In this document: one piece after another, positions 6,009 to 63,260 of the stretch | Layout: each line of letters opens with the position of its first letter | Numbering within the stretch: the stretch's first letter is position 1 | Assembly (NCBI GenBank): GCA_964572145.1 | Contig: CAZNES010000011.1 | Location: forward strand, 8,687-72,686 | DNA length: 64,000 nucleotides | DNA from: an uncultured Syntrophobacteraceae bacterium | GTDB taxonomy: Bacteria; Desulfobacterota; Binatia; UBA9968 | Direction of reading: 5' to 3' | Notes under the pieces: generated by a model | The model's input: only the letters and a program-made list of their open reading frames with translations | Told to the model about the DNA's origin: nothing | Database searches by the model: none | Program-made: the position numbers and the translations under genes

Positions 6009-7346
6009 ATGGCACACATAGTTCCCTTTCGTGGTGTTCTCTACAACCCGAAAAAAATTTCCGATCCTTCCAAGGTGATCGCGCCGCCTTACGACGTGAT
6101 TTCCTCGGAGGATCAAGAGAAGCTCTACCGCCGCTCGCCTTACAACGTCGTGCGGTTGATCCTAAATCAGGAGCCGGAGCCGTATGAAGTTGTCGCGCGG
6201 TTGTTCGAAGAGTGGCAGAAAGAAGGAGTCCTCATTCGCGACGAAATGCCGGCGATTTACTTTCTCACCCATCGTTACGCGCTGAAGGACGGAAAAGAAA
6301 AGGAGCGCAAGGGGTTCATCGCCCTGGCGCGGATCGAAGACTTTTCCAGCGGCGCGATCCGACCGCACGAGGCGACGCTCGCGGCGCCGAAGGAAGACCG
6401 GCTTAAGCTCATGCTCGCTTGCCACGCCAACTTGAGCCCGATCTTCGCGCTCTACTCCGAGCCGAAACAGCTCATCAATCGACTGATGGCGGAGCATGTG
6501 CGGGGAAAACCGCCGGACGTCGAGGTCAAAGAAGACAAAGGCGGGAGCTGCCGTCTCTGGCGCGTGACCGACGCCGAGCTCGTTCGCATGGCCCGTCAGC
6601 AGATGGAGCAGCCGCCGCTTTTGATCGCCGACGGCCATCACCGCTACGAGGCGGCGATGAACTATCGCGAGCACATGCGCCGGGAAAACCCCCGATTCAG
6701 CGGCCGCGAGGCGTTCAACTACGTCATGATGTATTTCGCCAACATGAAAGACGAGGGGGTGACGATTCTCCCGACGCACCGGCTGGTGCGCTCATTCCCA
6801 GCCATCGCTTTTCGCGAGCTCGAAGAATCGCTGATGCGCTATTTCTACATCGAGCCCTATCCCAAAAACGACGAGGGCCGGCGCTCGTTCTTGCGCGCGC
6901 TTCAGAGCGGAAGGAAAAAACACCGGCTCATCGGCGCATCTTTCAAGCGCGATCCGCGCTATTTGATTCTGCGGCTCAAGAACAAGAGGTTCATGCAGCG
7001 GCTCGCCGGCGACTTGAGCGCGCCGCTGCAAGAGCTGGACGTGAGCGTGCTGCACCGTCTCATTCTCGATCACATCCTGGGTCTCAAGCCCGAGGAGCAG
7101 GTCGCGGAAGGTGCGATCAGCTATTCGCAGGACGAAGAGAAAGTTTTACAGATGCTGGATAAGGAAGATTACCAGGCCGCGTTTATTTTAAATCCGCCCA
7201 AGGCGGAAGAGATCCTTGCTATCAGCGGCGCCGGCAAGACGATGCCGCAGAAGACGACCTATTTTTATCCGAAGCTCATCGACGGGCTGGTAATCAACAA
7301 ACTCGATGCGGAAGAACAGATAGAAGAGGGGCCAGCAGGCAGTTGA
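6009..7346 (+). CDS. DUF1015-family protein
   Basis: 445 aa. MAHIVPFRGVLYNP... with the length and conserved blocks typical of DUF1015. Confidence 0.7.
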   Translation: MAHIVPFRGVLYNPKKISDPSKVIAPPYDVISSEDQEKLYRRSPYNVVRLILNQEPEPYEVVARLFEEWQKEGVLIRDEMPAIYFLTHRYALKDGKEKERKGFIALARIEDFSSGAIRPHEATLAAPKEDRLKLMLACHANLSPIFALYSEPKQLINRLMAEHVRGKPPDVEVKEDKGGSCRLWRVTDAELVRMARQQMEQPPLLIADGHHRYEAAMNYREHMRRENPRFSGREAFNYVMMYFANMKDEGVTILPTHRLVRSFPAIAFRELEESLMRYFYIEPYPKNDEGRRSFLRALQSGRKKHRLIGASFKRDPRYLILRLKNKRFMQRLAGDLSAPLQELDVSVLHRLILDHILGLKPEEQVAEGAISYSQDEEKVLQMLDKEDYQAAFILNPPKAEEILAISGAGKTMPQKTTYFYPKLIDGLVINKLDAEEQIEEGPAGS

Positions 7347-7376: not shown

Positions 7377-7613
7377 ATGAGGTGCCGGGTCTGCCATTCT
7401 AAGATGGTAAAAAAGAAAATCACAGTTGATTTACGTGTTGGCGAAGACCTGCTCGTCGTCGAACAAGTCCCGGCAACCGTGTGCGAGCACTGTGGAGACA
7501 GAGTGTTTGCTCCCACGGTCGCTAAAAAACTCCAGGCTCTGGGCAGACGGCGCAAAAAGGCGCCGCGAACCCTGAGAGTGCCGGTCTTCTCCATGGATGA
7601 GGTCTCGCCGTAA
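7377..7613 (+). CDS. YgiT-type zinc-ribbon protein (MqsA N-domain-like)
   Basis: 78 aa. MRCRVCHS...VPATVCEHCGD: two CxxC pairs with the spacing of the YgiT-type zinc finger. Confidence 0.6.
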   Translation: MRCRVCHSKMVKKKITVDLRVGEDLLVVEQVPATVCEHCGDRVFAPTVAKKLQALGRRRKKAPRTLRVPVFSMDEVSP

Positions 7614-7652
7614 GATTCCGCTTCCCATCTCGTGCAACTGCCAAGGACTCAC

Positions 7653-7811
7653 ATGTGGTTGGACTACGACGAGAAGGTCGATGTTCTATACTTGCATTTT
7701 GAAGACCGACCAGGCTCAACACACAGCCAAATGCGGGATGACGGCGTCATCCTCGACTACAAGGGCCGCCGATTAGTAGGTGTCACCATCCTTGAGGCCT
7801 CCCAGCGATAA
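7653..7811 (+). CDS. DUF2283-family small protein
   Basis: The 52-aa ORF (shorter than the 60-aa track cutoff) MWLDYDEKVDVLYLHFEDRPGSTHSQMRDDGVILDYKGRRLVGVTILEASQR matches the DUF2283 pattern (YD.E.D.LYI...GVILDYD..G.LVGIEIL.AS.R). Confidence 0.65.
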   Translation: MWLDYDEKVDVLYLHFEDRPGSTHSQMRDDGVILDYKGRRLVGVTILEASQR

Positions 7812-7980
7812 GGAAGATTACCAGGCGGCGTTTATTTTAAATCCGACTCAGCCGGAAGAGATTATCGCCGTCACCGGCGCCGGCGAGAAGATGCCGCAGA
7901 AAACGACCTACTTCTATCCCAAGCTGATCTCTGGATTGGTGATCAACAAAATCGATCCGGCGGAAGAGATGCCGGAGTGA
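7807..7980 (+). pseudogene. diverged duplicate of the 3' end of the DUF1015 gene (gene fragment)
   Basis: KEDYQAAFILNPTQPEEIIAVTGAGEKMPQKTTYFYPKLISGLVINKIDPAEE parallels the C-terminus of the 6009-7346 product. The DNA at 7163-7330 versus 7809-7980 is roughly 80% identical. Confidence 0.8.
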
Positions 7981-14089: not shown

Positions 14090-15082
14090 GTGGAAAAATT
14101 GCATTTAACGATTGCGTGCGGCGATTACGACCGGACCAAAGCGCTGCAAACGGGAGCGGTCCAACCGGAAGGCATACAGCTCAACTATCTTCCCCTGCAG
14201 GCGGAAGAGATCTTTTGGCGCATGAGCAATTTTAAGGAGTTCGACGCCTCCGAAATGTCGCTCTCGAATCACATCACGATGGTGAGCCGCGGCAACTCTC
14301 CGTTCGTCGCGATTCCGGTGTTTCCATCGCGTTTCTTCAGGCACTCCTGCGTCTTCATCAACACCGATTCCGGCATTAAGGGACCGCAGGATTTCAAAGG
14401 CAAAAAAATCGGCGCGCCGGAATACTCGATCACCGCGGCGGTGTGGATTCGCGGCTTTCTAGGCGACGACTACGGCGTGAAAGCAAGCGACATGCAGTGG
14501 TTCGTCGGCGGACAGGAAGAAACGGGCAGGAAGGAACGAGTGCGCCTGAGCCTTCCGCCCGAGATCAAAGTGAGCCCGATCGCCGACGACAAAACTCTTA
14601 ACGGTATGCTCGAGAGCGGCGAGATCGACGGCCTGATCTCCGCGCGCAGTCCTTCGTCGTTCGTCAAAGGCTCGCCCAAAGTCCGGCGTTTGTTTCCCAA
14701 CTACAAAGAAGTCGAGATGGATTACTACAAGCGCACCAAAATCTTTCCGATCATGCACGTGCTGATCATTCGGAAAGAAATCTACGATCGCAATCCTTGG
14801 GTAGCGCGAAGCCTCTACAAGGCCTTTTGCGAAGCCAAAGATCGCGCGATCCAGGCGATGCACGTGTCTAATACGTTAGCCTGCACCCTGCCATGGCAGT
14901 TTGCGGAGATGGAGCTGCTCAAATCTCTTTTCGGCGCCGACTGGTGGCCCTACGGCGTCGAGCTCAATCAAAATCTCCTGGAGACATTGATACGCTACAT
15001 GGGCGAGCAGGGCCTCATCGACAGGCCGGTCAAGCTGGAAGAACTGTTTGCACCGAGCATCTCCGGCGAGTTTAAAATCTAG
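14090..15082 (+). CDS. 4,5-dihydroxyphthalate decarboxylase (PhtD/Pht5)-family protein
   Basis: 330 aa. The N-terminal LTIACGDYDRTKAL...EIFWRM..FDASEMSLSNHI pattern is characteristic of the PhtD-like PBP-fold decarboxylase family. A paralog lies at 16987-17964. Confidence 0.55.
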   Translation: MEKLHLTIACGDYDRTKALQTGAVQPEGIQLNYLPLQAEEIFWRMSNFKEFDASEMSLSNHITMVSRGNSPFVAIPVFPSRFFRHSCVFINTDSGIKGPQDFKGKKIGAPEYSITAAVWIRGFLGDDYGVKASDMQWFVGGQEETGRKERVRLSLPPEIKVSPIADDKTLNGMLESGEIDGLISARSPSSFVKGSPKVRRLFPNYKEVEMDYYKRTKIFPIMHVLIIRKEIYDRNPWVARSLYKAFCEAKDRAIQAMHVSNTLACTLPWQFAEMELLKSLFGADWWPYGVELNQNLLETLIRYMGEQGLIDRPVKLEELFAPSISGEFKI

Positions 15083-16986: not shown

Positions 16987-17964
16987 TTACGTATCTAAAG
17001 TCGCAGGCGCGAAGAGATCTTCGACAGCCGGCATTTTCTCCATCAGCCCCTGATCCAGAGAGTAGCCCATAAACCGCTCGATATTAGCGCGGTTCTTCCC
17101 AACGCCGTACGGCCACGGGTCGTCGCCCAGCAAATGTCTCTCCTCCTCGAAGAGATGGCGCCCCCAGGCGAGACGCGACCAGTTCGGATCGTCGTAATAG
17201 CGCCGGCAAACTTCCTTGGCCTTCTCGAATGCGTCCATCATACCCCGCGCGAGCCACGGATTTTGTTTGAGCACTTCATCCTTGAACGCCACCACGTGCA
17301 TGATGGGAAAAAATCTGTTCTTGCGAAAATAGTTTAACTCTTCCTGCTTGGCGTTGGAAAAGAGCCGGCGGATCTTCCCCGAGCCTCGCAACACTTCTTT
17401 CGGCGGGTGCGGCATGAACAGCGCGTCGATCTCGCCCGCTTCCAGCAAGCTCCCGATCTTTTTCCCCGCCGGGACGAGCCGAATCTTCACGCCCTCCTGA
17501 GGCTTGAACGGAACCGTCTCTTCCTTGGCGACGACCCACTCGATCTTGCGCCAGTCCACGTCGTATTCGGACTGCAAATCTCCCTTGGCCAGAACGGAAA
17601 GCGTCGTTTGATACGTGCTGAGTCCGACTTTACGGTCGATGAGATCTTTCGGAGAGTCGATGCCGGCCCCGGCGCGCACCCACATTTGCGACATGCTGAA
17701 AAGGCGGCGCGGAAAAACCGGGATAGCGGTAAAAGGCATGCTGCGGCTCTTGGCCATGAGATAGGAGGAAAGGGAAAGCTCGCAGATATCGAACTCCCCT
17801 TTCTGGAGCATTCTTTCATGGCGATCGACGCCGTGTTTTAACGGCTCCGATTGCCCGACCAGCAGCACGTTCAAATCCGCGCCATCGAGTGAAACAGCGC
17901 CGTCGAAAAAAGGAAAATGGCGGTCGTAATGAGACAGCGCCATCTTGAGCTTGAGCTTGGCCAT
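16987..17964 (-). CDS. 4,5-dihydroxyphthalate decarboxylase (PhtD)-family protein, paralog 2
   Basis: 325 aa. LKMALSHYDRHFPFFDG...FDICELSLSSYL parallels the 14090-15082 product. Confidence 0.55.
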   Translation of the reverse strand: MAKLKLKMALSHYDRHFPFFDGAVSLDGADLNVLLVGQSEPLKHGVDRHERMLQKGEFDICELSLSSYLMAKSRSMPFTAIPVFPRRLFSMSQMWVRAGAGIDSPKDLIDRKVGLSTYQTTLSVLAKGDLQSEYDVDWRKIEWVVAKEETVPFKPQEGVKIRLVPAGKKIGSLLEAGEIDALFMPHPPKEVLRGSGKIRRLFSNAKQEELNYFRKNRFFPIMHVVAFKDEVLKQNPWLARGMMDAFEKAKEVCRRYYDDPNWSRLAWGRHLFEEERHLLGDDPWPYGVGKNRANIERFMGYSLDQGLMEKMPAVEDLFAPATLDT

Positions 17965-35884: not shown

Positions 35885-36027
35885 CAACACGCCCCACCCA
35901 GACGCGCGCGAAGCGCCGTGCCAATTCTCAGTGCCGTCGGTGCGCGCCGGTGGGCGTGGACGTTAACCGGCAGAGTCAACGTGGCGCAACCTATGGATCG
36001 GGCGCGCACTGAAAGGCGGAAGCGGTG

Positions 36028-36159
36028 ATGAAGATCGACATCGACAAACTCAGCGAAGAAGAACTGATCGATCTGAACAACAACGAGGAAGATAAGAGAG
36101 CGGGACTCTTATTCTCGACGTGCAGCGTGGCACCGGCAAGCAGCGCTGTTATTGCTTAG
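36028..36159 (+). pseudogene. truncated duplicate of the 5' end of the 36548-36868 gene
   Basis: MKIDIDKLSEEELIDLNNNEEDKRAG... compared with MKIDIDKLSEDELIDLNNRIVV... at 36548. The DNA identity over the first ~60 nt is very high before the sequences diverge. Confidence 0.6.
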
Positions 36160-36254: not shown

Positions 36255-36551
36255 ATGGCCGATATGAATTCGAAAAAAAAATCTACGAAAAAACAATTTT
36301 CCGAAGAAGAAATCGATAAAATTGTAGAATCGCAAGTTGAGAAGGATTCAGCTTGGGGAAAACCCATTAAAGTCCGCAGAGCAAAAACGGCTGCTTTGTC
36401 TCTTCCGGCGAAGTTGGCTGCCCGTGCTGTTTTTCTGGCGAGATTACACAGCGAGAAAAACGTCGAGGAATGGTTGGCGCGCATTATTAAAGAGCGCGTG
36501 GAGCTGGAAGAGGTCGCTTTCAGTCAAGCAAAGCGCGCTATGTTGCGATGA
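36255..36551 (+). CDS. small CopG/ribbon-helix-helix-like protein (putative antitoxin-like)
   Basis: 98 aa in AT-rich DNA. The C-terminal strand-helix-helix pattern (LSLPAKLAARAVFLARLH...EEWLARIIKER). Its stop overlaps the next ATG (ATGA). Confidence 0.4.
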   Translation: MADMNSKKKSTKKQFSEEEIDKIVESQVEKDSAWGKPIKVRRAKTAALSLPAKLAARAVFLARLHSEKNVEEWLARIIKERVELEEVAFSQAKRAMLR

Positions 36552-36868
36552 AAATCGACATCGACAAGCTCAGCGAAGATGAACTGATCGATCTGAACAA
36601 CAGGATCGTGGTGCGCCTGCGGTTCTTGAGTCAGATGCGCGCGCACTCGCAGATGCTGGACTTCAAGATCGGCGATCGCGTCGCTTTTCAGCCGGAAGGG
36701 AGTCCGCGCCTGGTTGGAATGCTCACTCGCTACAATCGGAAAACGGTCACGGTCATCACCGACAGCGGACAGCACTGGAACGTGGCGCCGGGGCTTCTAC
36801 GCAAGGCAGCGTCTCCCGATCACGCGGAGACCGGCCACGCGAAGGTAGTTCGACTGAGAAAGGAATGA
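36548..36868 (+). CDS. hypothetical 106-aa protein (coiled N-terminus plus small beta domain), translationally coupled to the upstream RHH-like gene
   Basis: ORF with an ATGA overlap to the upstream gene. Its N-terminus is duplicated at 36028. Confidence 0.4.
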   Translation: MKIDIDKLSEDELIDLNNRIVVRLRFLSQMRAHSQMLDFKIGDRVAFQPEGSPRLVGMLTRYNRKTVTVITDSGQHWNVAPGLLRKAASPDHAETGHAKVVRLRKE

Positions 36869-40002: not shown

Positions 40003-40872
40003 ATGAAAGTCAAAAAGGCCGTCATACCGGTCGCCGGCTTGGGCACGCGCCTTCTGCCCGCGACCAAAACCGTCCCGAAAGAGCTTCTGCCGATCGTGGA
40101 CACCCCCGCGATCCAGTACGTCGTCCAGGAGGCGGTGGATTCCGGACTCACCGAGATGATCTTTGTCACCGCCAGAGGAAAAGACGGCATCGAGGATCAT
40201 TTCGACGAAGCGCCGGAGCTCGAGCTGGTCCTGGTGCAGCGGGGACAAAGAGAGATACTGGAACGGCTCAAGGCGATCTCCGGGATGATCGATATCGTCT
40301 CGGTCCGGCAGAAGCAGCCTTTGGGACTCGGCCATGCGGTTCTTTCCGCCAAGCATCTGGTCGGGGACGAGCCCTTTGCCGTTCTGCTCTCGGACGATCT
40401 GATCGACGATCCGATTCCGTGCGTGCGGCAGTTACTCAACGTTTTCGAAGCGAAGGGAGAATCGGTCCTGGCGCTCAGAAAGGTGCCCCGGCCCGATGTA
40501 CGGCGCTACGGCATCATTCAAGGGCCGATGATAAGCGACCGGACCTACGAGGTTCAGTCGATGATCGAAAAGCCCGAGCCGAAAGATGCGCCGTCGGAGC
40601 TGGCCATCGTCGGCCGCTACATTCTTCACCAGGATATCTTTTCCTATTTGGAGAAGGTTAAGCCGGGCAAAGGCGGCGAAATACAGCTCACCGACGGAAT
40701 CGCCGAGCTCGCGCGCCGGAGAAAAGTCTACGGTTATGAATTTACCGGCGAGCACTATGACGTCGGCGACAAGCTGGGCGTCGTGCGCGCCAACGTCGCC
40801 TACGCGCTCAAAAGACCGGACCTCAGGGATCCGCTTATGAAATATCTCGCGAAGGTGGTGGGCAAGGACTAA
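40003..40872 (+). CDS. galU: UTP--glucose-1-phosphate uridylyltransferase
   Basis: 289 aa. VIPVAGLGTRLLPATKTVPKELLPIVD is the GalU N-terminal signature. Confidence 0.9.
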   Translation: MKVKKAVIPVAGLGTRLLPATKTVPKELLPIVDTPAIQYVVQEAVDSGLTEMIFVTARGKDGIEDHFDEAPELELVLVQRGQREILERLKAISGMIDIVSVRQKQPLGLGHAVLSAKHLVGDEPFAVLLSDDLIDDPIPCVRQLLNVFEAKGESVLALRKVPRPDVRRYGIIQGPMISDRTYEVQSMIEKPEPKDAPSELAIVGRYILHQDIFSYLEKVKPGKGGEIQLTDGIAELARRRKVYGYEFTGEHYDVGDKLGVVRANVAYALKRPDLRDPLMKYLAKVVGKD

Positions 40873-40928
40873 CCGTCGCACAGTTGCGACGGGGAAACTC
40901 AGCACTCAGGACTCAGCACTATTTTTGT

Positions 40929-41004
40929 GGGGCCGTAGCTCAGCTGGGAGAGCGTCGCGTTCGCAACGCGAAGGTCAGGGGTTCGACTCCCCTCGGCTCC
41001 ACCA
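40929..41004 (+). tRNA. tRNA-Ala (CGC)
   Basis: GGGGCCGTAGCTCAGCTGGGAGAGCGTCGCGTTCGCAACGCGAAGGTCAGGGGTTCGACTCCCCTCGGCTCCACCA. The G3:U70 identity pair is present, the anticodon is CGC and CCA is encoded. Confidence 0.9.
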
Positions 41005-41200
41005 TTCGACTCGCGGGCATAACGCCCGCTCGCTCATGGCAGGCCATTCAGGACTAACCCACTCATCGAGGCGAATGGTGCCCTGAGCAACGTCGAAGGG
41101 CTATCGGGTTCTTCGACTCGCCTGAAAGAACTCAGGCTCGCTCATGGCAGGCCATTCTCGGATTCATCTCGGTTTCGAGTCGAAGGGCCGTCTAGCAATG
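41005..41200 (+). repeat. tandem direct repeat (two units of ~107 bp) abutting the tRNA-Ala 3' end
   Basis: TTCGACTCGC...GCTCGCTCATGGCAGGCCATTC occurs at 41005-41047 and 41112-41158. GTCGAAGGGC also recurs. Confidence 0.6.
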
Positions 41201-41246
41201 CGATTTCTTTTGCGCTAATTTGCTGGAGTCGCAGGAGGGCACTCTA

Positions 41247-41909
41247 ATGGATCGGCGCAAATTCCATTTTGAACCGTTTGAAGCTCTAATTGTCTGCTGC
41301 GGCATTGTGTCGCTCTTGTTGGCCGTCTCCGGCTGCTCGAGCGTCCAGGGACAAATAGAAGCCGGCCGGAGGGATTTGCTTTACGGCGATCCAAACCTCG
41401 CGACGGCATATTTCGAGCGAGCGGCGGAGACGGCCCCCGATCGGCTTTATTTCAGCGTGCTCCCGGAAGGATCGTTGACCTACTTAGGACGCGGGTACTA
41501 CGCCACGGGAAAACTTCCCGAGGCGCGCCAGGCATTGGAGCGCGCCGTCTCCCGCTACGAGCAGGACAATCTTGCCAAGCTCTACCTGGGCCTGGTGCGC
41601 GTGCGCCAGGGAGACCGGGAGCGCGGACTGCGGGAGGTCGAAAGCGGCCTGCGCGGCATTCACGACTGGATCGAATACGTCGCACAGCGTTTCGCGTTTT
41701 CCTACGGCCGCTTCTGGGACCCCGGCAGACCGATCCGTAAACAGATCGAAGCGGACCTCGCCATGATCTCCTCGGGAAAAGTCGATGGGTCCAAACTCAT
41801 CGCCGACGCCGAGTGGGTGGGGAGACAGATAGAAGAGGAGATCGACCGCGCGCGCCGGGACGAAACCGACGATAGGTTCAGGGACGGCGACAACGGGGGC
41901 CGCCGGTAG
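41247..41909 (+). CDS. hypothetical lipoprotein (TPR-like)
   Basis: MDRRKF..LLLAVSGCSS lipobox. No family recognised. Confidence 0.45.
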   Translation: MDRRKFHFEPFEALIVCCGIVSLLLAVSGCSSVQGQIEAGRRDLLYGDPNLATAYFERAAETAPDRLYFSVLPEGSLTYLGRGYYATGKLPEARQALERAVSRYEQDNLAKLYLGLVRVRQGDRERGLREVESGLRGIHDWIEYVAQRFAFSYGRFWDPGRPIRKQIEADLAMISSGKVDGSKLIADAEWVGRQIEEEIDRARRDETDDRFRDGDNGGRR

Positions 41910-42335
41910 AAAAGTGATATCTCCGCGCTTGCCGCAGGCGCGAATCGAAACGGCCGGCCTTGCCTTTCCCTCCTTCCGCTACAACCATCTTTCTGCACGA
42001 TCGCCGTTTGTCACCTGACAACCTGGCCCTTTAATCATTGAGAGATCCCATCTCGACAACGGATCTCTCTCTGCCCTTTTATCTGCTTTCACCAATCTTG
42101 TTCGCAGTGACTGGTCCACGATTGTTCTTGTTCTGGCAAAGCGAAAGGTTTTTGGATATGTTGCTCGCCGGGCCACAATCAACCTGGAGGCAACTTTGGA
42201 GGGTTCAACTCAACGTGGAGGCATCATGACAAATTGGCTTTGGCTGGGTTCAGCTGTTCTCCTCTGTGTACAGCGGGCCGTCCTCCATCTCGCCAACGTT
42301 TCTATCTCCCCTTGGTAGGTGACACTGATTGGCCA

Positions 42336-42411
42336 CTAACCGTAGCTCAGTTGGGAGTGCGCTAGAATCACGCTCTAGAGGTCGGGGGTTCGACTCCTCT
42401 CGGCTCCACCA
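42336..42411 (+). other. tRNA-like chimera / pseudo-tRNA (Val-CAC-type anticodon arm, tRNA-Ala-type 3' end, non-pairing acceptor 5' strand)
   Basis: The D arm GTAGCTCAGTTGGGAG, the anticodon arm CTAGA-ATCACGC-TCTAG (CAC) and the T arm plus 3' end GGGGGTTCGACTCCTCTCGGCTCCACCA differ by only one nucleotide from the tRNA-Ala 3' end at 40973-41004. The 5' seven nucleotides CTAACCG cannot pair with CGGCTCC. Confidence 0.45.
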
Positions 42412-42621
42412 GTTCAGGGGGATGATGGAACACCAGCCCCTTATTTTTTGGCAAAGGAGCCATTTTTTGGCTCATTCTTCTTCCCCGAGGTCACGCCCGC
42501 CTCCGGGGCTGACCTCGTCCGATCACCAATCGGCCTAAGCTCTAGGCGCTCTTCTTTTACCATTGAACAGATCCATCGGATAGTGTAACTACTCTGACCA
42601 GTTTACTCATCGGAGGATCCT

Positions 42622-45327
42622 ATGGCGACGCTGAACTGGCATTCTATGGGTGTCGATACCGTCTTGACGGAACTACACACAGATCCTCAACGAGGTTTAG
42701 CAGAGGATGAGGTGAGAAGGCGCATTGAGGAATATGGCTATAATGAGCTTAAAAAAGAAGAGAAGGTCTCTCCCTGGATCCTGTTCTTCAAACAGTTCAA
42801 GAACATCCTCATCGTCATCCTGCTGATTGCAACGGTCCTATCGGCCCTCCTCGGGGAGATGGTGGATGCCACCATCATCATGGCCATCGTCATCTTCTGC
42901 GCGGTCCTGGGCTTCGTCCAGGAGTACCGGGCGGAGCAGGCCCTGGAGGCCCTGAAGAAAATGCTCACGCCTACCATCACAGCGATCAGGGGAGGGAAGG
43001 AACACGAGATCCCCTCGAAGGAGTTAGTTCCAGGAGACATCATGCTCCTTGAGGCGGGAGATAAAATCCCCGCTGATGGCCGGTCCGTCGAAGTCCACTC
43101 CCTGAAATGCGATGAGGCTCCCCTGACAGGAGAATCCTTTCCGGTGGAGAAGGAGACCAAGCTACTGCCTGAGCATATAGCCGTGGGAGACAGAAAAAAC
43201 ATGGTCTTCACAGGCACCACCGTCACCTACGGGAGAGCAAAGGTAGTGGTCACAACCACGGGCATGAATACAGAGTTTGGCAAGATCGCCGAAGAGGTGG
43301 CGTCAGTCGCCAAAGAAGAGACGCCCCTTGAAAAGAGGACAGCAGAGATCGGTAAATGGCTAGGGATCATCTGCCTGGCCGTATGCTTTTTGGCTGCGGG
43401 CATCAGCATTATCAAGGAGCTGATGGTGGGAAAGCTTGATCTCCAGTTCACGATCACAATGGTGACGTTCGGTATCGCTCTTGCGGTGGCGGCGGTTCCT
43501 GAGGCGCTGGCCGCCATCGTGACCGGCGCGCTGGCGATCGGCATGCATGAAATGGCCAAGAGAAACGCGCTGGTGAGAAAGATGCCGGCGGTGGAGACGC
43601 TGGGATGCACGACGGTGATCTGCTCGGATAAAACAGGGACCCTTACGAAAGGGGAGATGACGGTGCGGAAGTTCTTTAGCGGGGAAAGGATGATTGAGGT
43701 GACCGGCGCTGGTTACACCCCCGAAGGTGGTTTTAGCGCAGCGATCAATGATCCATCCGCCCAGTGGCTTCTGAAGGCGGGGCTCCTGTGCAGCGATGCC
43801 GTGCTTGAAGAAAAAGAGGACCGCTGGTCCGTCAAAGGAGATCCTACTGAGGGCGCACTCGTGGTGCTCGCCGTCAAGTCAGGGTTGCATCAGGAGGAGA
43901 CCCGGCTTGAGTGCCCGAGGATCGAGGAGTTTCCGTTCAGCTCTGAGAGAAAGCGGATGACGACGATCCATACGATGGGAGATGGGAAGAGAGTGGCGTT
44001 TGTGAAAGGGGCTCCAGAAGTGCTCCTGGAGAGATGCTCCTCTCTCCTGGATGGAGGAGAACTGAGAGCGTTAACCAATGGCGAAGGGGAAAGAATTCTG
44101 AACGTCAATGAGGAGATGGCCAAGGACGCCTTAAGGGTTCTGGGCATCGCCTATAAAGAACTCCCAGAGATGGATGGGTATGGCGAGGAGTCCGTTGAAA
44201 GAGACCTGGTCTTCCTCGGCCTGGTCGGAATGATGGATCCTCCCAGGGAGGAGGCCACAGAGGCAGTAAAGGTGTGTCGCCAGGTGCATATCAAACCCGT
44301 CATGATCACAGGGGATCACAGGCTGACTGCCGTGGCCATCGCAAAAGAGATTGGTATCTACCGTGATGGAGATCTCGTTCTCACGGGCGAGGAACTTGAC
44401 AAGATGAGCGAGGAGGAGTTCGAACGGATTGTTGAAAGAGTGACCGTCTATGCCAGGGTCTCGCCCATGGACAAGCTGAAGATCATCAAGGCATGGAAGA
44501 AAAAGGGCGAGGTAGTCGCCATGACCGGCGACGGAGTCAACGACGCCCCGGCCCTCAAGCACGCCGACATTGGGATCGCCATGGGGATCACAGGAACCGA
44601 GGTGGCCAAGGAGGCTGCGGATGTAGTCCTGATGGACGATAACTTTGCCACTATTATCCAGGCTATTGAGCGGGGAAGGTGGATCTATGACAACATTAAA
44701 AAGTACCTCACCTATCTACTGAGAGCGAACATCACGGAGGTGGTGGTCCTCGGCGGAGTCGTCATGATCACGGACCCCGAGTTCTTGCCTCTCCTGCCGG
44801 CGGCGATCCTCTACATCAATTTGGCCACGGACGGGCCTCCGGCGCTGGCGCTGGGTGTGGCGCCTCCCGACCCTGACATTATGCAGAGACCCCCGCGAGA
44901 CCCGAAAGAGAGCGTGTTTTCATGGGACGTCAGAGCCCTCGTCCTGCTGGGGGTGGTCATCGAGTGCCCCATCTTCTTGTGGGTCTTCTTCCAGAACTTT
45001 GCCAATCTAGAGCTGGCAAGAACGAAGGTCTTCTTCATGTACGTGCTCATCGAGTTGATCCTCGCCCTCAATTTCCGCTCGTTGAAGTACAGCATCTTCC
45101 AGGCGCCCCCCCACAAATCGCTCGTTCTGTCGATTGTCGGCACCTTGGTATTCACCGCTGCCTTGATCCAGATTTCCTCCGTGCGCGAGGCATTTGGAAT
45201 CGCCCTGCCAGCTGCCTCGGACCTTGGTATAATTTTGGCTCTGGGCCTATTCGTCACGATCACGATCGAAATTACCAAAGCTGTTTTGAGGGCCAAGGCA
45301 CCTGGGGTGGGAGGGGTCTCCGCCTAA
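42622..45327 (+). CDS. cation-transporting P-type ATPase (type IIA-like, Ca2+/Mg2+)
   Basis: 901 aa. DKTGTLT phosphorylation motif, TGDGVNDAPAL hinge motif, and a 10-TM architecture. Its codon usage has lower GC3 than the neighbouring genes. Confidence 0.9.
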   Translation: MATLNWHSMGVDTVLTELHTDPQRGLAEDEVRRRIEEYGYNELKKEEKVSPWILFFKQFKNILIVILLIATVLSALLGEMVDATIIMAIVIFCAVLGFVQEYRAEQALEALKKMLTPTITAIRGGKEHEIPSKELVPGDIMLLEAGDKIPADGRSVEVHSLKCDEAPLTGESFPVEKETKLLPEHIAVGDRKNMVFTGTTVTYGRAKVVVTTTGMNTEFGKIAEEVASVAKEETPLEKRTAEIGKWLGIICLAVCFLAAGISIIKELMVGKLDLQFTITMVTFGIALAVAAVPEALAAIVTGALAIGMHEMAKRNALVRKMPAVETLGCTTVICSDKTGTLTKGEMTVRKFFSGERMIEVTGAGYTPEGGFSAAINDPSAQWLLKAGLLCSDAVLEEKEDRWSVKGDPTEGALVVLAVKSGLHQEETRLECPRIEEFPFSSERKRMTTIHTMGDGKRVAFVKGAPEVLLERCSSLLDGGELRALTNGEGERILNVNEEMAKDALRVLGIAYKELPEMDGYGEESVERDLVFLGLVGMMDPPREEATEAVKVCRQVHIKPVMITGDHRLTAVAIAKEIGIYRDGDLVLTGEELDKMSEEEFERIVERVTVYARVSPMDKLKIIKAWKKKGEVVAMTGDGVNDAPALKHADIGIAMGITGTEVAKEAADVVLMDDNFATIIQAIERGRWIYDNIKKYLTYLLRANITEVVVLGGVVMITDPEFLPLLPAAILYINLATDGPPALALGVAPPDPDIMQRPPRDPKESVFSWDVRALVLLGVVIECPIFLWVFFQNFANLELARTKVFFMYVLIELILALNFRSLKYSIFQAPPHKSLVLSIVGTLVFTAALIQISSVREAFGIALPAASDLGIILALGLFVTITIEITKAVLRAKAPGVGGVSA

Positions 45328-45348
45328 AGAGTCGGACCGAGACTGGCG

Positions 45349-46542
45349 TTGATAAGTGTGAGATCAGAAGTCAAGCCCCTTCTTTGGCTGCTCGCATCGG
45401 TTTCCCTGGCCTTACAGTGGATTATCTTTCATCTTTCCGGCGTACCTATTTCACCAGAGTGGCAGGCTCTAAGCGCCGGCCTCGCGATTTTTGGAGCGGC
45501 GTTTCTTCTCTCTTGGTCCGCCGAGCTTGCGCAACTCGATATTCCTCAGGCTTTGGCCCTCGCTTTCCTTGCTCTCATCGCCGTTTTGCCGGAGTACGCG
45601 GTAGACATGTACTTCACCTGGATGGCGGGGAAGAACCCGCAATACACGGCGTACGCGACCGCAAACATGACCGGCGCCAATCGTCTGCTCATAGGGGTGG
45701 GCTGGGCCGCCGTCATCTTCACCTATTGGCTCAAGACCCGTCACCGCTCTTTTGCCCTTGAGCCCTCTCACAAGATCGAAATTCTATATCTTACTCTCGC
45801 GACCGTTTACTCGTTTCTGATCCCGCTTAAGGGCCAGCTCGATCTCCTCGACGCCGTCGTCCTGATCAGCCTTTTTGGATTCTACATCTGGACGGCAACC
45901 CAGGCGGCTCACGTAGAGCCGGACCTCGAAGGGCCGACGGAAATGATCGCCGCGTGGGGAACGCCCTCACGGCGCGCGACAACCCTGGCGTTGTTCCTGA
46001 TTTCCGGTTACACCATCTTTATTTCGGCTGAGCCGTTTGCCGAGGGTCTCCTGGCCACCGGCCGGACTTTCGGCATCGAAGAGTTTGTGCTGGTTCAGTG
46101 GCTGGCACCGTTGGCCTCCGAGTCGCCCGAATTCATCGTAGCGATTCTCTTCGCCCTGCGCGCCAACCCGGGGGCGAGTCTCGGCACGCTGCTCTCTTCC
46201 AAGGTCAATCAGTGGACGCTGCTGGTGGGAATGCTCCCGGTCGTCTATATGGTCTCGGCCGGCCGGCTGACGCCGATGCATATGGACGCGCGGCAAGTGG
46301 AAGAGATGCTGCTAACTTCGGCGCAGTCCGTATTCGCGGTTGCGGTGCTGATCAATCTATCCTTCTCTCTGATGGAGGCGGGCGTCTTGTTTGTGCTCTT
46401 TACCACCCAGCTTTTGATTCCCGACCCGACGTTTCGCTACTTCTTCTCGTTCCTCTATATTGCCTTGACGATCGGAATTTTCATCTTCAACAAGGAAAGT
46501 CGCAGCGCTTTGGTCGGGCTTTTCTCGCGGTCTAAAACATGA
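45349..46542 (+). CDS. polytopic membrane protein, putative cation (Ca2+) exchanger (CaCA-like)
   Basis: 397 aa with about 10 TM segments and an internal two-fold repeat. It lies directly downstream of the P-type ATPase. The family call is tentative. Confidence 0.4.
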   Translation: MISVRSEVKPLLWLLASVSLALQWIIFHLSGVPISPEWQALSAGLAIFGAAFLLSWSAELAQLDIPQALALAFLALIAVLPEYAVDMYFTWMAGKNPQYTAYATANMTGANRLLIGVGWAAVIFTYWLKTRHRSFALEPSHKIEILYLTLATVYSFLIPLKGQLDLLDAVVLISLFGFYIWTATQAAHVEPDLEGPTEMIAAWGTPSRRATTLALFLISGYTIFISAEPFAEGLLATGRTFGIEEFVLVQWLAPLASESPEFIVAILFALRANPGASLGTLLSSKVNQWTLLVGMLPVVYMVSAGRLTPMHMDARQVEEMLLTSAQSVFAVAVLINLSFSLMEAGVLFVLFTTQLLIPDPTFRYFFSFLYIALTIGIFIFNKESRSALVGLFSRSKT

Positions 46543-46563
46543 TCACGCCCGGCCGCGGCGCAG

Positions 46564-46782
46564 TCAAACCCGGCGAAACGGGAGGGTTCCGTTTTTAGAT
46601 ATCAGACGCCAAGTGTCGTCCGCATCATAGCTGACACGGACGACTTCGCCCGGTTCCAGATGAAATGATCGGTACTGGTTGAGAGGCGTTCCGGTGACGC
46701 GGCAAATTACCGACAGGATGGGAAAATTATGGCTGACGACGAGGAGCGTTTCGTCCGGACCATGGCGCCCACCGCGCCCCAA
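46564..46782 (-). pseudogene. diverged duplicate of the 3' end of the histidine-phosphatase gene (fragment)
   Basis: ETLLVVSHNFPILSVICRVTGTPLNQYRSFHLEPGEVVRVSYDADDTWRLISKNGTLPFRRV parallels the C-terminus of the 47706-48320 product. The DNA is roughly 78% identical. Confidence 0.8.
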
Positions 46783-46974
46783 AAAATCCCGATGCGCTGC
46801 TGCCGGCGCGGCAGCGTGCGCACCGCCATCGCGATGACCAGCGCGTTATCACCGGCCAACGTCAAATCGATGACAACAATCTTAAGCCAGCTCAGAATGA
46901 ATTCCCAATGCATTGAAAAGCTGTTCCTTCAGCAGACCCCGTTTGAAATGAAGAAATTCGGACGGGTGTTTTAG

Positions 46975-47559
46975 TCAGTGCTTTTTCCCGATATCCACGA
47001 GAAACGAGACCAAGCGGGCCGGCTTCGTTGCTCCTGAACGTTTGGCGATCCGGATCTCTATCTCATTCAACCTCGACGCCACGCTCTGCTTCAAGATCGT
47101 AAGCTCTTCTTCCCTCGCAGCTAGAAGGAGATCTCTCTGTTTGATCTCGGAAAGCAGTTTTTCCAGCTCTCCACTGATCCTTTTCTCCAGCTCCTGCAGC
47201 TGGCTTTCTTTTGCGCATAAAGCGGCATACTTTTCATCCATCTTTTTCTCCCACCCGTCCAGATCCACCGCGCTCTCCTCTTCCAGGGCGATAAAGCTCT
47301 CGGGAAGATTTTGGCCGCCGCTTGTCGCGCTCACCTGCCTCTGCGCTTCGGCAATCTGTGAAAGAATATTCGACTCCACTACGCGAGCGCGGCCCGTCTC
47401 CTGTTTGAACTGCGACTCTATCTGTCCCAAGCGTAAAGCAACGTTTTCAACGAGCGCTTCTACTCTTTGCATCCGATTCTGAACGCCGTCGGAGATTTTT
47501 CCGGACTTTTTTTTACGCCCCTTCATGATGGCCTCCTCGTCTGCATGGACTTGGCCCAA
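46975..47559 (-). CDS. hypothetical coiled-coil protein
   Basis: 194 aa of heptad-rich sequence (LQELEKRISGELEKLLSEIKQRDLLLAAREEEL). No family recognised. It lies between the phosphatase gene and its duplicated 3' fragment. Confidence 0.45.
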   Translation of the reverse strand: MGQVHADEEAIMKGRKKKSGKISDGVQNRMQRVEALVENVALRLGQIESQFKQETGRARVVESNILSQIAEAQRQVSATSGGQNLPESFIALEEESAVDLDGWEKKMDEKYAALCAKESQLQELEKRISGELEKLLSEIKQRDLLLAAREEELTILKQSVASRLNEIEIRIAKRSGATKPARLVSFLVDIGKKH

Positions 47560-47705
47560 TTCAGCTGCAGGTCTTGTACCCGCGGCCAGTGGACCCTACG
47601 CAAAAACGGGAGGAGCATAGTCAAAGCCCGATTGAAATGCAAGGCGAGCGCAAGCCGCAATCAAACGGCCCTGCAAAGAAAGAAGTCAGGAACTGGAAAG
47701 CCGGG

Positions 47706-48320
47706 TCATTCCCGGCGCAGCGGGAGCTTGCCGTTCTCACGCATCACTCGCCATTCATCATCCCCGTTGTAGCTCAAGCGAACAACTCCGCCCGGCGCTA
47801 GATGATAGGTTCGGTACTGGTTAAGCGGAGTCCCGGTGATGTGGCAGATAACCGCCAGGATAGGAAAGTTGTGACTGACGACAACGAGGGTCTCTTCCGC
47901 ACGATGGCGTCGGACGATCCGGCGCATGCCGTCCCATGCCCGCTGCTCGACGTCGATCAATCTCTCGCCGCCGGGAATATCGGCGTCCGCGGGCGTCTCT
48001 CGCCACCGGCGAAGAAAATCGGGACGGGTCGCCTGAATCTCCGCAAAGGTGAGGCCCTCGATCTCGCCGTGATCGAGCTCGCGCAGGCTTTCTTCGATGG
48101 TGACGGCGAGGTTATGGAAGCGGCCGACGGCGCCGGCGGTCTGGAGCGCCCGTTTGAGCTGGCTCGAATAAATCGCGTCGATTTTCTCGCGGCTCAAGTC
48201 CAGCGCCGCGGCCTCCGCCTGCCTCAGCCCGACTTCGTTGAGCTCCAGGTCGGTCGATCCCTGGCATCTCTGCGCCAGATTCCAGTCGGTGGCCCCGTGC
48301 CGCAGCAAAAAAATCCGCAT
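47706..48320 (-). CDS. histidine-phosphatase (phosphoglycerate-mutase-like / CobC-like) family protein
   Basis: MRIFLLRHGATDWN is the RHG catalytic motif. 204 aa. Confidence 0.8.
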   Translation of the reverse strand: MRIFLLRHGATDWNLAQRCQGSTDLELNEVGLRQAEAAALDLSREKIDAIYSSQLKRALQTAGAVGRFHNLAVTIEESLRELDHGEIEGLTFAEIQATRPDFLRRWRETPADADIPGGERLIDVEQRAWDGMRRIVRRHRAEETLVVVSHNFPILAVICHITGTPLNQYRTYHLAPGGVVRLSYNGDDEWRVMRENGKLPLRRE

Positions 48321-56289: not shown

Positions 56290-56470
56290 GGGCGCCTTCT
56301 CCCTTCGCGCCTCTTCCTTCGTTTGCTTCGTGTCAGCCTGAGGCTGATCAGCCTCTCTTTTTGGCCGATCCTTCGTGGTCGAAAAGTTTATCACCACAAA
56401 GAGCACGAAGGTCACGAAGTTTTGAACGCCTCGCGCCAAGACGCAAAGAATGCATTCCTCATCTACAGTG
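56290..56470. repeat. MITE-like repeat, copy A (palindromic core TCAGCCTGAGGCTGATCAGCCTC with CTTCGTG/CACGAAG arms)
   Basis: About 90 nt are near-identical to 63040-63130. The arm motifs are shared with 58862-59183. Confidence 0.6.
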
Positions 56471-63029: not shown

Positions 63030-63260
63030 TTTTCTTCCTTCGAGACCTTCGTGTCAGCCTGAGGCTGATCAGCCTCTCTTTTTGGCTGATCCTTCGTGGT
63101 CAAAATCTTCTCACCACGAAGAGCACGAAGTTTGGATCATTCATCGGACCAAGATCGCAGCGTTTCCTCGCGATTCTTTTTCCTTGGCGTCCTTTGCGTC
63201 TTTGCGCGAGAGAACGCATTTCGGTCCTTCTCTGTTATCGCGCCAAGACGCCAAGCTCGC
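63030..63260. repeat. MITE-like repeat, copy C
   Basis: 63040-63130 is near-identical to 56317-56410. The downstream TTGGCGTCCTTTGCGTCTTTGCGCG resembles copy B. Confidence 0.6.

Follow-up and report, generated by a model that had tools for sequence, protein, structure and literature searches.

Tyrosine recombinases integrate genomic islands at tRNA genes or at the 3' ends of genes. Homology-facilitated illegitimate recombination (HFIR), as defined in PMC3240628, has been demonstrated experimentally in Streptococcus pneumoniae, Acinetobacter baylyi, Pseudomonas stutzeri and E. coli (PMC3240628; PMC6382021, whose cited sources include de Vries & Wackernagel 2002, Prudhomme et al. 2002 and Meier & Wackernagel 2003). 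Its joints lie in short microhomologies, reported as 3-10 bp, and RecA-mediated exchange collapses above ~15% divergence (PMC6382021). HFIR has also been proposed as the mechanism behind the displacement of T6SS effector-immunity modules in Vibrio cholerae (Kirchberger et al. 2017, PMC5361080), a source that also cites the C-terminal displacement described for rhs/CDI (Jackson et al. 2009, as cited in PMC5361080). Most documentation of HFIR comes from laboratory transformation experiments, and for toxin-immunity arrays it is a proposal.

Here, a phosphatase locus in a 64-kb window (the whole stretch of DNA analysed) is best read as a recombination scar produced by HFIR between allelic cassettes of related Binatia, a reading to which we assign a probability of nearly 80%. 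The features on which it is based, together with those of a second locus of similar anatomy, are collected in Table 1.

Table 1. Features of the phosphatase locus and of the DUF1015 locus (positions in the window; L-numbers designate the relatives compared).
Feature	Position	Strand	Evidence or remark
Complete DUF1015 gene, anchor of second locus	6009..7346	+	Pfam DUF1015 1-325/325
Cassette A, DUF1015 locus	7377..7811	+	YgiT-type zinc-finger 7377-7613 (TIGR03831) + DUF2283 7653-7811
DUF1015 3' relic, last ~57 codons	7807..7980	+	82% nt to 7158-7321
Cassette B, DUF1015 locus: convergent 543-aa gene after relic	8015-9646
Native right flank	40003..41829	+	95-99% to L007, L012, L080
galU-like NTP transferase, right flank	40003-40872	+
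tRNA-Ala(CGC), right flank	40929-41004	+
TPR lipoprotein, right flank	41220-41909	+	Pfam
L081-like tract: TPR gene 3' end, intergenic, exchanger-relic start	41830..42267	+	98-100% identity to L081
Exchanger 5'-end relic, 30 codons (MTNWLWLGSAVLLCVQ...), cut by ATPase segment	42226..42318	+	self-match
tRNA-Ala relic	42340..42411	+	Rfam tRNA 34.4 bits, model positions 5-66/71
Imported segment with P-type IIA (Ca-type) ATPase gene (42622-45327)	42504..45423	+	identity to L087/L090
Na/Ca-exchanger (CaCA), B-type, convergent on relic	45349..46542	+	Pfam Na_Ca_ex
Phosphatase 3' relic, B-type allele, codons ~138-204 + stop	46564..46767	-	pseudogene fragment
Junction in imperfect 14-nt microhomology GGGCGCCATGGTCC	46757..46770	-	three-way alignment with L007, L012
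Truncated terC/yjbE, start codon + ~48-50 codons	46913..~46771	-	Pfam TerC 2-43/178, E 8e-12
Coiled-coil gene, A-type cassette	46975..47526	-	183 aa from ATG 47526; TTG 47559 gives 194 aa
His_Phos_1 histidine phosphatase, complete	47706..48320	-	Pfam positions 1-190/194, E 1e-58

Two alternative cassettes occupy this site as alleles in the Binatia species cluster: an A type, consisting of a coiled-coil gene and terC, and a B type, consisting of a convergent Na/Ca-exchanger gene. The last third of the phosphatase gene also differs between the types, each carrying a diverged version of its own. The site is bounded by conserved ppiD-phosphatase on one side and by the conserved TPR-lipoprotein/tRNA-Ala/galU group on the other. 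The phosphatase is a conserved anchor gene downstream of ppiD: of 72 genome loci, 64 lie on contigs that extend beyond its upstream end, and in all 64 it is adjacent to ppiD. Its 3' third in the window is the A-type allele. The order PpiD-phosphatase-coiled-coil-TerC is conserved in relatives and intact in L007 (JBGQBP01), a ~95% identical genome of the same cluster, with which the window is collinear at 95.5% from 55880 down to 46757 (88-97% nt identity over the phosphatase gene itself). At that point L007 continues with an intact terC, and homology between the two resumes at 41909. In L012 (CAYOJC01) and L080, which belong to the same cluster (PpiD and GalU 96-98%), the phosphatase is followed directly by the convergent exchanger, with neither the coiled-coil gene nor terC; this order is found in L006, L009-L013 (L012 included) and L079-L081. 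The identity of the L012 phosphatase to the resident copy drops from ~95% to ~76% near 47970, the 5' two-thirds of the gene being A-like in both L012 and L080. The window is thus a hybrid: its left half is of A type, and from phosphatase codon 138 onwards its right half is of B type. The insertion put forward in the preliminary description implied a presence/absence polymorphism among relatives, and one does exist, with L007 carrying the A type and L012 and L080 the B type.

The preliminary description had also reported a complete minus-strand phosphatase gene and, downstream, a 72-aa ORF copying its end, and both observations held. The ORF (46564-46782, minus strand) aligns without gaps to phosphatase residues 138-203 (45/66 identities, 68%; E 4e-35), matches positions 136-189 only of Pfam His_Phos_1, and lacks the catalytic N-terminal part. 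Pairwise alignment of the DNA gave 73% identity over the whole 205-nt repeat (46563-46767 vs 47705-47909) and 78% over the best 125 nt (E 2e-20), a similarity far beyond chance. The ORF does not belong to a longer independent paralog, as the sequence upstream of codon 138 is terC. When its relationship to the resident copy was checked, the relic proved closest to the 3' end of the L012 phosphatase (87% nt, 84% aa, with 90-95% over the first 70-100 nt), followed by the L008, L080 and L081 genes (84% nt), and was only 73-76% identical to the resident copy and to the A-type allele of L007. Its dN/dS against functional homologues (0.18-0.26) equals that among functional copies, and between relic and resident copy dS is ~1.1, with 33 of the 55 mismatches at one codon position. 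These values indicate that relic and resident diverged as working genes in separate lineages and that the relic is young. A search with the 67-aa relic in a set of 5.8 billion proteins returned only two short matches, both at contig edges, and no close full-length donor. The 72-aa ORF is a displaced gene end left by recombination, a dead leftover.

The coiled-coil gene, which had been taken for the insert, is instead a native A-type neighbour of the phosphatase. It lies beside the phosphatase in L004, L005, L007, L008, L015 and the P0010 contig, it is collinear with its L007 counterpart at 96-99% nt identity, and the 20 homologues of its protein are all metagenome-derived or from Binatia MAGs. 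Its position between the two copies was correctly described; the true start is likely the ATG that gives 183 aa, as in the homologues, instead of 194 aa. An exact-protein look-up of the 194-aa ORF gave no match because gene callers take the 183-aa start. The truncated terC that follows is 96% identical (aa) to the N-terminus of the intact 225-aa TerC of L007, a member of the TIGR03717 YjbE family, and its frame continues across the relic, out of register, until it meets a stop at 46707. The fusion of this terC remnant to the phosphatase relic had been overlooked earlier.

The window follows the terC of L007 up to the GGGCGCCATGGTCC block and the phosphatase of L012 from the block on, and these two genes have GGCGCC..GGTCC in common at the switch point. 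Over the 14 nt, the TerC proxy (L007) matches 13/14 and the phosphatase proxy (L012) 12/14, and the two central bases match neither in the expected order; since L007 and L012 stand in for parental genomes that are absent from the comparison, the crossover cannot be placed to a single base. A few matches of 12-13/14 are to be expected by chance between two GC-rich genes of ~650 nt, and only the coincidence of this one with the joint is informative. The DNA meeting at the joint is of unlike ancestry, with 96-99% identity to L007 on the A side and 78-89% to anything sampled on the B side. About 570 nt of the terC 3' end, kept in L007, are missing from the window; if the transfer were reversed, ~60 nt of B-type phosphatase would be missing at the joint.

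From this structure we infer a mechanism in which a piece of one haplotype would have been added to the other haplotype, with no clean replacement. At one end, homologous recombination would have taken place in the conserved flank; at the other, where ~25% divergence is beyond RecA, an illegitimate joint at the 14-nt microhomology would have linked terC codon ~50 to phosphatase codon ~138. In the outcome, the A-type phosphatase and the coiled-coil gene are whole and terC is decapitated, while the B-type phosphatase is reduced to an end of 66 codons without function, next to an exchanger gene that is intact. HFIR was one of the two mechanisms offered in the preliminary description, and the microhomology junction and the different ancestry of the two sides argue for it.

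Regarding the direction of transfer, the balance tips slightly towards an A-type genome that received the B side (relic and exchanger, either together with the ATPase or ahead of it) and lost the 3' end of terC. Identity on the A side is at native level (96-99% to L007), with no breakpoint over 9 kb, and the best matches of the B side lie in other lineages or nowhere close (L081 99%, L087 91%, exchanger only 78-81% to the B-types of the cluster itself). The argument is indirect, since no donor of exchanger and relic closer than 78-89% was found among the sampled sequences, and the two could also represent a deeply diverged native B-type allele.

The opposite direction, which corresponds to the gene-end replacement of the preliminary description, is less probable: conspecific A-type DNA (phosphatase 3' part, coiled-coil gene and terC 5' end) would have entered a B-type genome by homologous crossover in ppiD or near the start of the phosphatase gene, with the illegitimate joint at phosphatase codon 138, and its gene end would have taken the place of the native one, which survives as the relic. 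This scenario accounts equally well for the junction and the hybrid structure. A loss of just ~60 nt of recipient DNA against a gain of ~1.2 kb would be typical of HFIR; the A-like 5' two-thirds of the B-type phosphatases of L012 and L080 would serve as anchor, and the L012-like identity of the first 70-100 nt of the relic is near native level. However, the window exchanger shares only 78-81% (nt) with the B-type genes of its own cluster, compared with 89-92% among those genes themselves and 95-98% in all flanks, and foreign input on the B side is repeated. A three-way identity profile across ppiD and phosphatase revealed no left-hand breakpoint from which the direction could be read.

The B side is in itself a patchwork of an ATPase segment ~91% identical to a distant lineage, the tRNA-Ala relic, the exchanger 5' relic and the 99% L081-like tract. 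The ATPase segment is 91% identical (nt) to L087/L090 overall and locally up to 99%, whereas the galU next to it in L087/L090 reaches just 69%; it is absent in L081, where the equivalents of window positions 42267 and 45415 adjoin, and the best NCBIfam matches of the ATPase are PMR1/SERCA-type, under the curated cut-off. The 5' end of the exchanger is itself chimeric, belonging up to ~45423 to the L087-like segment, and a metagenome scan with the exchanger protein yielded no relative above 83% aa. The exchanger 5' relic was recovered as a self-match (42238-42312 vs 45382-45456) in a tblastx self-comparison, which is noisy because sum statistics inflate weak matches and was used only to confirm strong local duplicates. 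The tRNA-Ala relic, labelled 'tRNA-Val(cac)' by ARAGORN (42337-42407), is without its first 4 nt, its acceptor stem is broken and its anticodon loop mutated, and it scores about half of the 68.6 bits that Rfam gives the true tRNA-Ala; it is 90-94% identical to the tRNA-Ala of L087, L032 and L005 and less so to the window's own. The L081-like tract, delimited against this metagenome contig by sliding identity and a 120-nt window scan, reflects a recent homologous exchange: outside it, the TPR gene is 40-70% identical to L081 and 93-98% to L007/L012. Identity returns to native level within the TPR gene (~41830-41909), the later, 99% L081-like tract overlying this boundary. GC content is 0.54-0.60 throughout and does not tell the segments apart.

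Three further explanations are each very improbable. In the first, an integrase-mediated element would have entered the phosphatase 3' end and brought along a replacement gene end, as is the case for many genomic islands at tRNA or protein-gene ends, its remainder being lost later. The succession of full gene, insert and displaced 3' end does resemble attL/attR duplications, tRNA-Ala fragments occur nearby, and in L087 an exact 34-nt tRNA half repeat flanks the ATPase. Nevertheless, no integrase or recombinase is encoded between or beside the repeats: every ORF from 41.9 to 48.4 kb is accounted for (ATPase, exchanger, terC remnant, coiled-coil, phosphatase), and none has a recombinase domain. 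What lies between the repeats is not a mobile element but the conserved coiled-coil-terC cluster, truncated inside terC; the repeat ends have no identical core, the longest exact in-register run being 12 nt and mid-repeat; and at the distal boundary the sequence passes directly into a different gene, with no att site. Site-specific integration into gene ends, the other mechanism initially offered, is thus largely refuted.

The second explanation, in-situ tandem duplication followed by deletion and decay, or an old paralog remnant, would account for two same-strand copies of a gene end 1.1 kb apart. It is rejected on the identity matrix and on dS: the relic is nearer to L012 (87%) and to L008, L080 and L081 than to the resident copy, and a dS of ~1.1 with a dN/dS of ~0.18 points to divergence under selection in separate genomes. 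Moreover, the B-type copies of relatives are at the same locus, between ppiD and galU, and are therefore alleles rather than paralogs, and homology to the phosphatase begins abruptly at the terC joint. The third is an assembly chimera of co-occurring A-type and B-type strains; in its favour, closely related populations do harbour both haplotypes, and the DNA probably comes from a metagenome assembly. It is rejected because the junction architecture is reproduced at 99.9-100% identity in two independent assemblies that both span it (JGI 3300010391 and Logan SRR6155509, the latter from another run) and because the exact match between the two sides at the joint is only 6-7 bases long, which would not suffice for a misjoin in a de Bruijn graph. 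Finally, a template/variable repeat pair like that of diversity-generating retroelements, whose layout likewise places a diverged copy close to the 3' end of a gene, is hardly conceivable and is refuted by the mismatch spectrum, spread about equally over A, C, G and T and concentrated on one codon position, with no reverse transcriptase gene found nearby.

The anatomy attributed above to HFIR recurs. As the preliminary description had noted, the architecture is paralleled at the DUF1015 locus, where the same hybrid structure is found with repeats (7158-7321 vs 7807-7970) of 82% identity. The DUF2283 gene of its cassette A matches the whole Pfam model (1-49/49), with a stop codon created at the junction. 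In L161, DUF1015 and the zinc-finger gene are followed by a convergent amidohydrolase gene, and in L160 DUF1015 is followed by the convergent 543-aa gene and the amidohydrolase; the DUF1015 relic resembles the C-termini found in other lineages (up to 87% aa) more closely than it does the resident copy. The tRNA-Ala relic, ATPase and exchanger 5' relic show a mirrored anatomy, with the full anchor outside and the relic next to the insert, and the tRNA-Ala half repeat of L087 is a gene-end duplication in another organism. Altogether, the window contains at least four or five gene-end relics, and an unrelated Binatia contig has one more. It is doubtful that additive, end-joining-type capture of allelic cassettes is unusually frequent in Binatia. 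If it were, this would point to a lineage-specific pathway, such as an active Ku/LigD or microhomology-mediated end-joining route that handles incoming DNA, or an unrecognised recombinase. Variable loci would then be assembled step by step, and relics that can be dated and traced to their donors would be left across the genome.

The process is already known: the trace of gene exchange left at this locus, unusually clear as it is, is an ordinary one, and no new genetic system is revealed. The value of the locus is that it documents cleanly, in nature, the rebuilding of a variable locus: both 'parent' haplotypes persist in sister genomes, the joint can be read with nearly single-base precision, and imports from at least three other lineages, nested in one another, are distinguishable. 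The HFIR signature at ordinary metabolic and transport loci suggests that this process contributes to everyday gene-content change in Binatia. For annotation, the 72-aa and 68-aa ORFs are relics, and the 'tRNA-Val(cac)' is a dead tRNA-Ala copy. In terms of gene content, the window has lost terC and gained a CaCA exchanger and a Ca-type P-ATPase, which may amount to a swap of alternative divalent-cation exporters.

Compared with known systems, the locus differs from genomic islands in having no integrase, identical att core or self-contained element, and its duplicates are 73-94% identical, as expected of orthologues from different lineages; it shares with them a partial duplicate of the target 3' end at one boundary, and tRNA-Ala is among the anchors here. 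With the T6SS and rhs/CDI systems it has in common a conserved upstream gene, variable downstream cassettes and additive insertion, by which the old end is shifted downstream as an orphan. However, the phosphatase locus contains neither toxin nor immunity genes and a single relic rather than an array; a housekeeping-type phosphatase, DUF1015 or a tRNA serves as anchor, and cation transporters make up the cassettes. It is thus not a polymorphic-toxin locus, its anchor being His_Phos_1 and its cassettes transporters and a coiled-coil gene, and only the recombination geometry is alike. With HFIR it shares a probable homologous anchor on one side, a short-microhomology joint on the other, and heterologous DNA added with a small recipient deletion where the sequences are too diverged for RecA. 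Unlike in the laboratory, HFIR is deduced here from natural genomes of an uncultured phylum, and the imperfect microhomology of 12-13/14 nt lies at the upper limit of the 3-10 bp range or exceeds it. Also in contrast to known HFIR, the 'foreign' DNA is an allelic cassette of the same locus, and a piece of the anchor gene was therefore dragged along with it.

A scan with the phosphatase C-terminus, at one genome per species, recovered 72 loci, most of them in MAGs that bear the label Candidatus Binatia or the older "Deltaproteobacteria", and ppiD was followed by the phosphatase in all 64 whose contig extends upstream. The window and three relatives' loci, L007, L012 and L080, belong to one species cluster (96-98% nucleotide identity in ppiD and galU). 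Comparative genomics, on which the preliminary description had made its gene-end replacement depend, revealed a presence/absence polymorphism within this cluster. In L007 (A type), ppiD and the phosphatase are followed by a coiled-coil gene and an intact terC (225 aa, YjbE family), and then by a convergent TPR-lipoprotein gene, tRNA-Ala and galU. In L012 and L080, and likewise in two partial contigs from metagenomes, L079 and L081 (B type), a convergent Na/Ca-exchanger gene comes directly after the phosphatase, again followed by TPR, tRNA-Ala and galU. Running down from 55880, the window stays collinear with L007 (95.5% identity) as far as 46757; there L007 proceeds into terC, and homology starts again at 41909. 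Identity to L012 is about 94% down to the phosphatase, dropping to about 76% from about 47970, and the L012 phosphatase 3' end and exchanger align with the window's second phosphatase 3' end (the relic) and exchanger (46769-45415, 78.5%). On these two alignments, the window locus is a hybrid, with an A-type left half and a B-type right half beginning at phosphatase codon 138. The L012 phosphatase was itself an A/B mosaic in a three-way identity profile; evidently, double homologous crossover does swap cassettes cleanly within the species cluster.

Features of the phosphatase and DUF1015 loci in the window
Feature	Position	Strand	Match or remark
Histidine phosphatase, complete (resident copy)	47706-48320	-	Pfam His_Phos_1 positions 1-190/194, E 1e-58
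Coiled-coil gene	46975-47526		
TerC/YjbE membrane protein N-terminus	ORF start 46913	-	Pfam TerC positions 2-43/178, E 8e-12
Phosphatase 3' relic, 72-aa ORF	46564-46782	-	His_Phos_1 positions 136-189 only
Exchanger body and phosphatase relic	45423-46770		best matches no higher than 78-89%
P-type IIA (Ca-type) ATPase segment	42504-45423		91% to L087/L090, locally 99%; galU of these contigs only 69% identical
tRNA-Ala copy without first 4 nt	42340-42411		90-94% to tRNA-Ala of L087, L032, L005
Exchanger 5'-end relic, 30 codons	42226-42318		
TPR 3' end, intergenic, exchanger-relic start	41830-42267		98-100% to contig L081
Right flank	<=41830		native, 95-98% to L007/L012
DUF1015, full gene	6009-7346		
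YgiT-type zinc-finger gene	7377-7613		TIGR03831
DUF2283 gene	7653-7811		Pfam 1-49/49; stop codon created at joint
DUF1015 second-allele 3' end, last ~57 codons	7807-7980		convergent 543-aa gene follows

ORF calls reproduced the positions in the preliminary description, and its claims of a complete phosphatase gene and a 72-aa copy of the C-terminal end were borne out by the Pfam match and by a gapless protein alignment with phosphatase residues 138-203 (45/66 identities, E 4e-35). Its DNA identity of roughly 78% holds for the best 125 nt of the repeat (E 2e-20); across the whole 205 nt (46563-46767 vs 47705-47909) identity is 73%. The relic lacks the catalytic N-terminal two-thirds of the phosphatase. 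The 190 nt separating it from the coiled-coil gene are not spacer but hold a terC coding remnant, whose ORF leads straight on into phosphatase sequence coded in a different frame; the sole possible start for the relic is a TTG within this remnant. The switch from terC to phosphatase lies inside an imperfect 14-nt microhomology (46757-46770): L007 terC reads ...GGGCGCCGTGGTCC followed by TCCGG..., the L012 phosphatase ...CGGCGCCACGGTCC followed by GGACG..., and the window ...GGGCGCCATGGTCCGGACG.... By our own estimate, two such genes should share no more than a few matches this good, and a joint exactly on one of them is the signature of microhomology-mediated illegitimate joining.

The barrier to RecA-mediated exchange climbs steeply above ~15% divergence (PMC6382021), and such exchange would be expected to fail for an incoming DNA end lying in a ~25%-diverged phosphatase gene end. 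Homology-facilitated illegitimate recombination (HFIR) would instead use a homologous anchor at one end and a microhomology joint at the other, adding DNA with some loss of recipient DNA. Its product (PMC3240628; PMC6382021) has this anchor and joint on opposite sides, foreign DNA gained and a small amount of recipient DNA lost. The window structure matches this product exactly, pointing to HFIR, already an option in the preliminary description, as the mechanism that joined two sides of different ancestry. As to direction, we lean, at about 60:40, towards an A-type genome having taken up the B side, at a cost of 570 nt of terC. The opposite course, with A-type DNA entering a B-type genome (the "gene-end replacement" originally envisaged), would have removed only ~60 nt of recipient. 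It is somewhat less probable because the A side keeps native identity over 9 kb, with no breakpoint, the B side shows foreign DNA time and again, and the window exchanger is 78-81% identical to the species cluster's own B-type genes, which share 89-92% among themselves.

The gene closest to the relic is the L012 phosphatase (87% nucleotide identity), followed by those of L008, L080 and L081 (84%), whereas the resident copy and the A-type L007 allele reach 73-76%. Against functional homologues the relic has a dN/dS of 0.18-0.26, no different from that of functional copies compared with one another. Between relic and resident copy, dS is ~1.1 and a single codon position accounts for 33 of 55 mismatches. 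The two therefore diverged as working genes in different lineages, and the fragment became a relic only a short time ago. A tandem duplication or paralog origin was rejected on the joint alignment, the identity comparison, and dN/dS and dS. Site-specific integration into gene ends, the other mechanism initially offered, likewise failed in the form of an integrase-mediated island, as no recombinase or identical core was found and the supposed insert is a truncated conserved cluster. The mismatch pattern dismissed a DGR-like repeat pair, and an assembly chimera was discarded on the joint alignment and on contigs from JGI 3300010391 and Logan SRR6155509, which reproduce the full arrangement with its terC/phosphatase joint at 99.9-100% identity.

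The coiled-coil gene had been regarded as inserted. It lies directly downstream of the phosphatase wherever context is available (L004, L005, L007, L008, L015 and the contig of homologue P0010), and this constancy makes it a conserved neighbour rather than an insert. The ORF is present as described, but the gene probably starts at the ATG at 47526, for a length of 183 aa instead of 194, as in homologues and other gene calls. The family, comprising the window gene and 20 homologues (P0001-P0020), was seen only in metagenomes and Binatia MAGs, is constantly linked to the ppiD-phosphatase pair, closes with a C-terminal motif that hardly varies (ARLVSFLVDIGKKH), and had no assignment in Pfam or NCBIfam, the two resources tried.

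Further exchanges make the right half a patchwork. The 440-nt tract at 41830-42267 has the look of a short stretch exchanged very recently, by homologous recombination, with L081-like DNA; the L081 TPR body is 40-70% like the window's, which is 93-98% identical to those of L007 and L012. In L081, the equivalents of 42267 and 45415 adjoin each other, so the tRNA relic and the ATPase constitute a 3.15-kb insertion in the exchanger 5' end. The tRNA-Ala copy scored 34.4 bits on the Rfam tRNA model (positions 5-66), against 68.6 for the real tRNA-Ala (40929-41004), and was called tRNA-Val(cac) by ARAGORN (42337-42411) because its anticodon loop is mutated; it is a decayed partial copy of a tRNA-Ala from another lineage, and annotation as a functional tRNA is unwarranted. 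The ATPase nucleotide identity of 91% (to L087 2001-4925 and L090 4538-5888), against 69% in neighbouring galU, indicates recent horizontal transfer among distant Binatia lineages; in L090 the gene has an internal deletion of residues ~414-870. L087, an unrelated metagenome contig, carries, in order, tRNA-Ala (1689-1764), the ATPase, the first 38 exchanger codons, an exact 34-nt copy of the tRNA 3' half (4965-4998) and its own exchanger, which is either the same anatomy of full gene, insert and relic or an att-like duplication. Genes in the variable slot encode TerC/YjbE (TIGR03717), a CaCA exchanger (Pfam Na_Ca_ex) and, here, also the P-type ATPase, whose best matches are PMR1/SERCA-type, below the curated cut-off. 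We infer a slot for alternative metal or cation exporters, and the event resembles an exchange, or an accumulation, of systems for divalent-cation efflux in which terC was lost.

The architecture previously proposed as common to the DUF1015 and phosphatase loci was recovered, the former also reading as cassette A followed by an anchor 3' end with cassette B. Between DUF1015 and a conserved amidohydrolase, relatives carry a YgiT-type zinc-finger gene (L161), a 543-aa gene (L160) or a GDSL lipase (L159), and the DUF1015 relic resembles the C-termini of other lineages (up to 87% aa) more closely than that of the resident gene. The window's zinc-finger gene is MqsA-N-like; YgiT-type zinc-finger and DUF2283 families are frequently linked to toxin-antitoxin modules, and no toxin partner was evident in the cassette (7377-7811). 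Near 36 kb, the first 18 codons (MKIDIDKLSEEELIDLNN) of a 106-aa ORF (36548-36868) are duplicated 520 nt upstream (36027-36082 vs 36547-36602, 95%), possibly a 5'-end version of the same scar type; the intervening 465-nt insert, AT-richer by eye, holds an ORF of ~100 aa, its stop overlapping the full gene's start. The tRNA-Ala trailer (…GCTCGCTCATGGCAGGCCATTC) occurs twice, 108 nt apart (41021-41049 vs 41129-41157, 90%), and one copy may be a relic of a neighbouring lineage's trailer. Other repeats were a 73-nt intergenic direct repeat containing short hairpins (56312-56384 vs 63033-63105, 92%), whose folding has no clear advantage over shuffled sequences (z -1 to -2), and an inverted pair of paralogous coding regions (14096-15058 vs 17002-17958; 35-45% aa across ~320 codons, tblastx).

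Rather than a new element or system, the window locus is a real feature, a natural and multi-layered case, from a phylum that has been little studied, of recombination by a known process. The HFIR model has also been proposed for orphan immunity arrays of Vibrio T6SS clusters and for rhs C-terminal displacement (PMC5361080).
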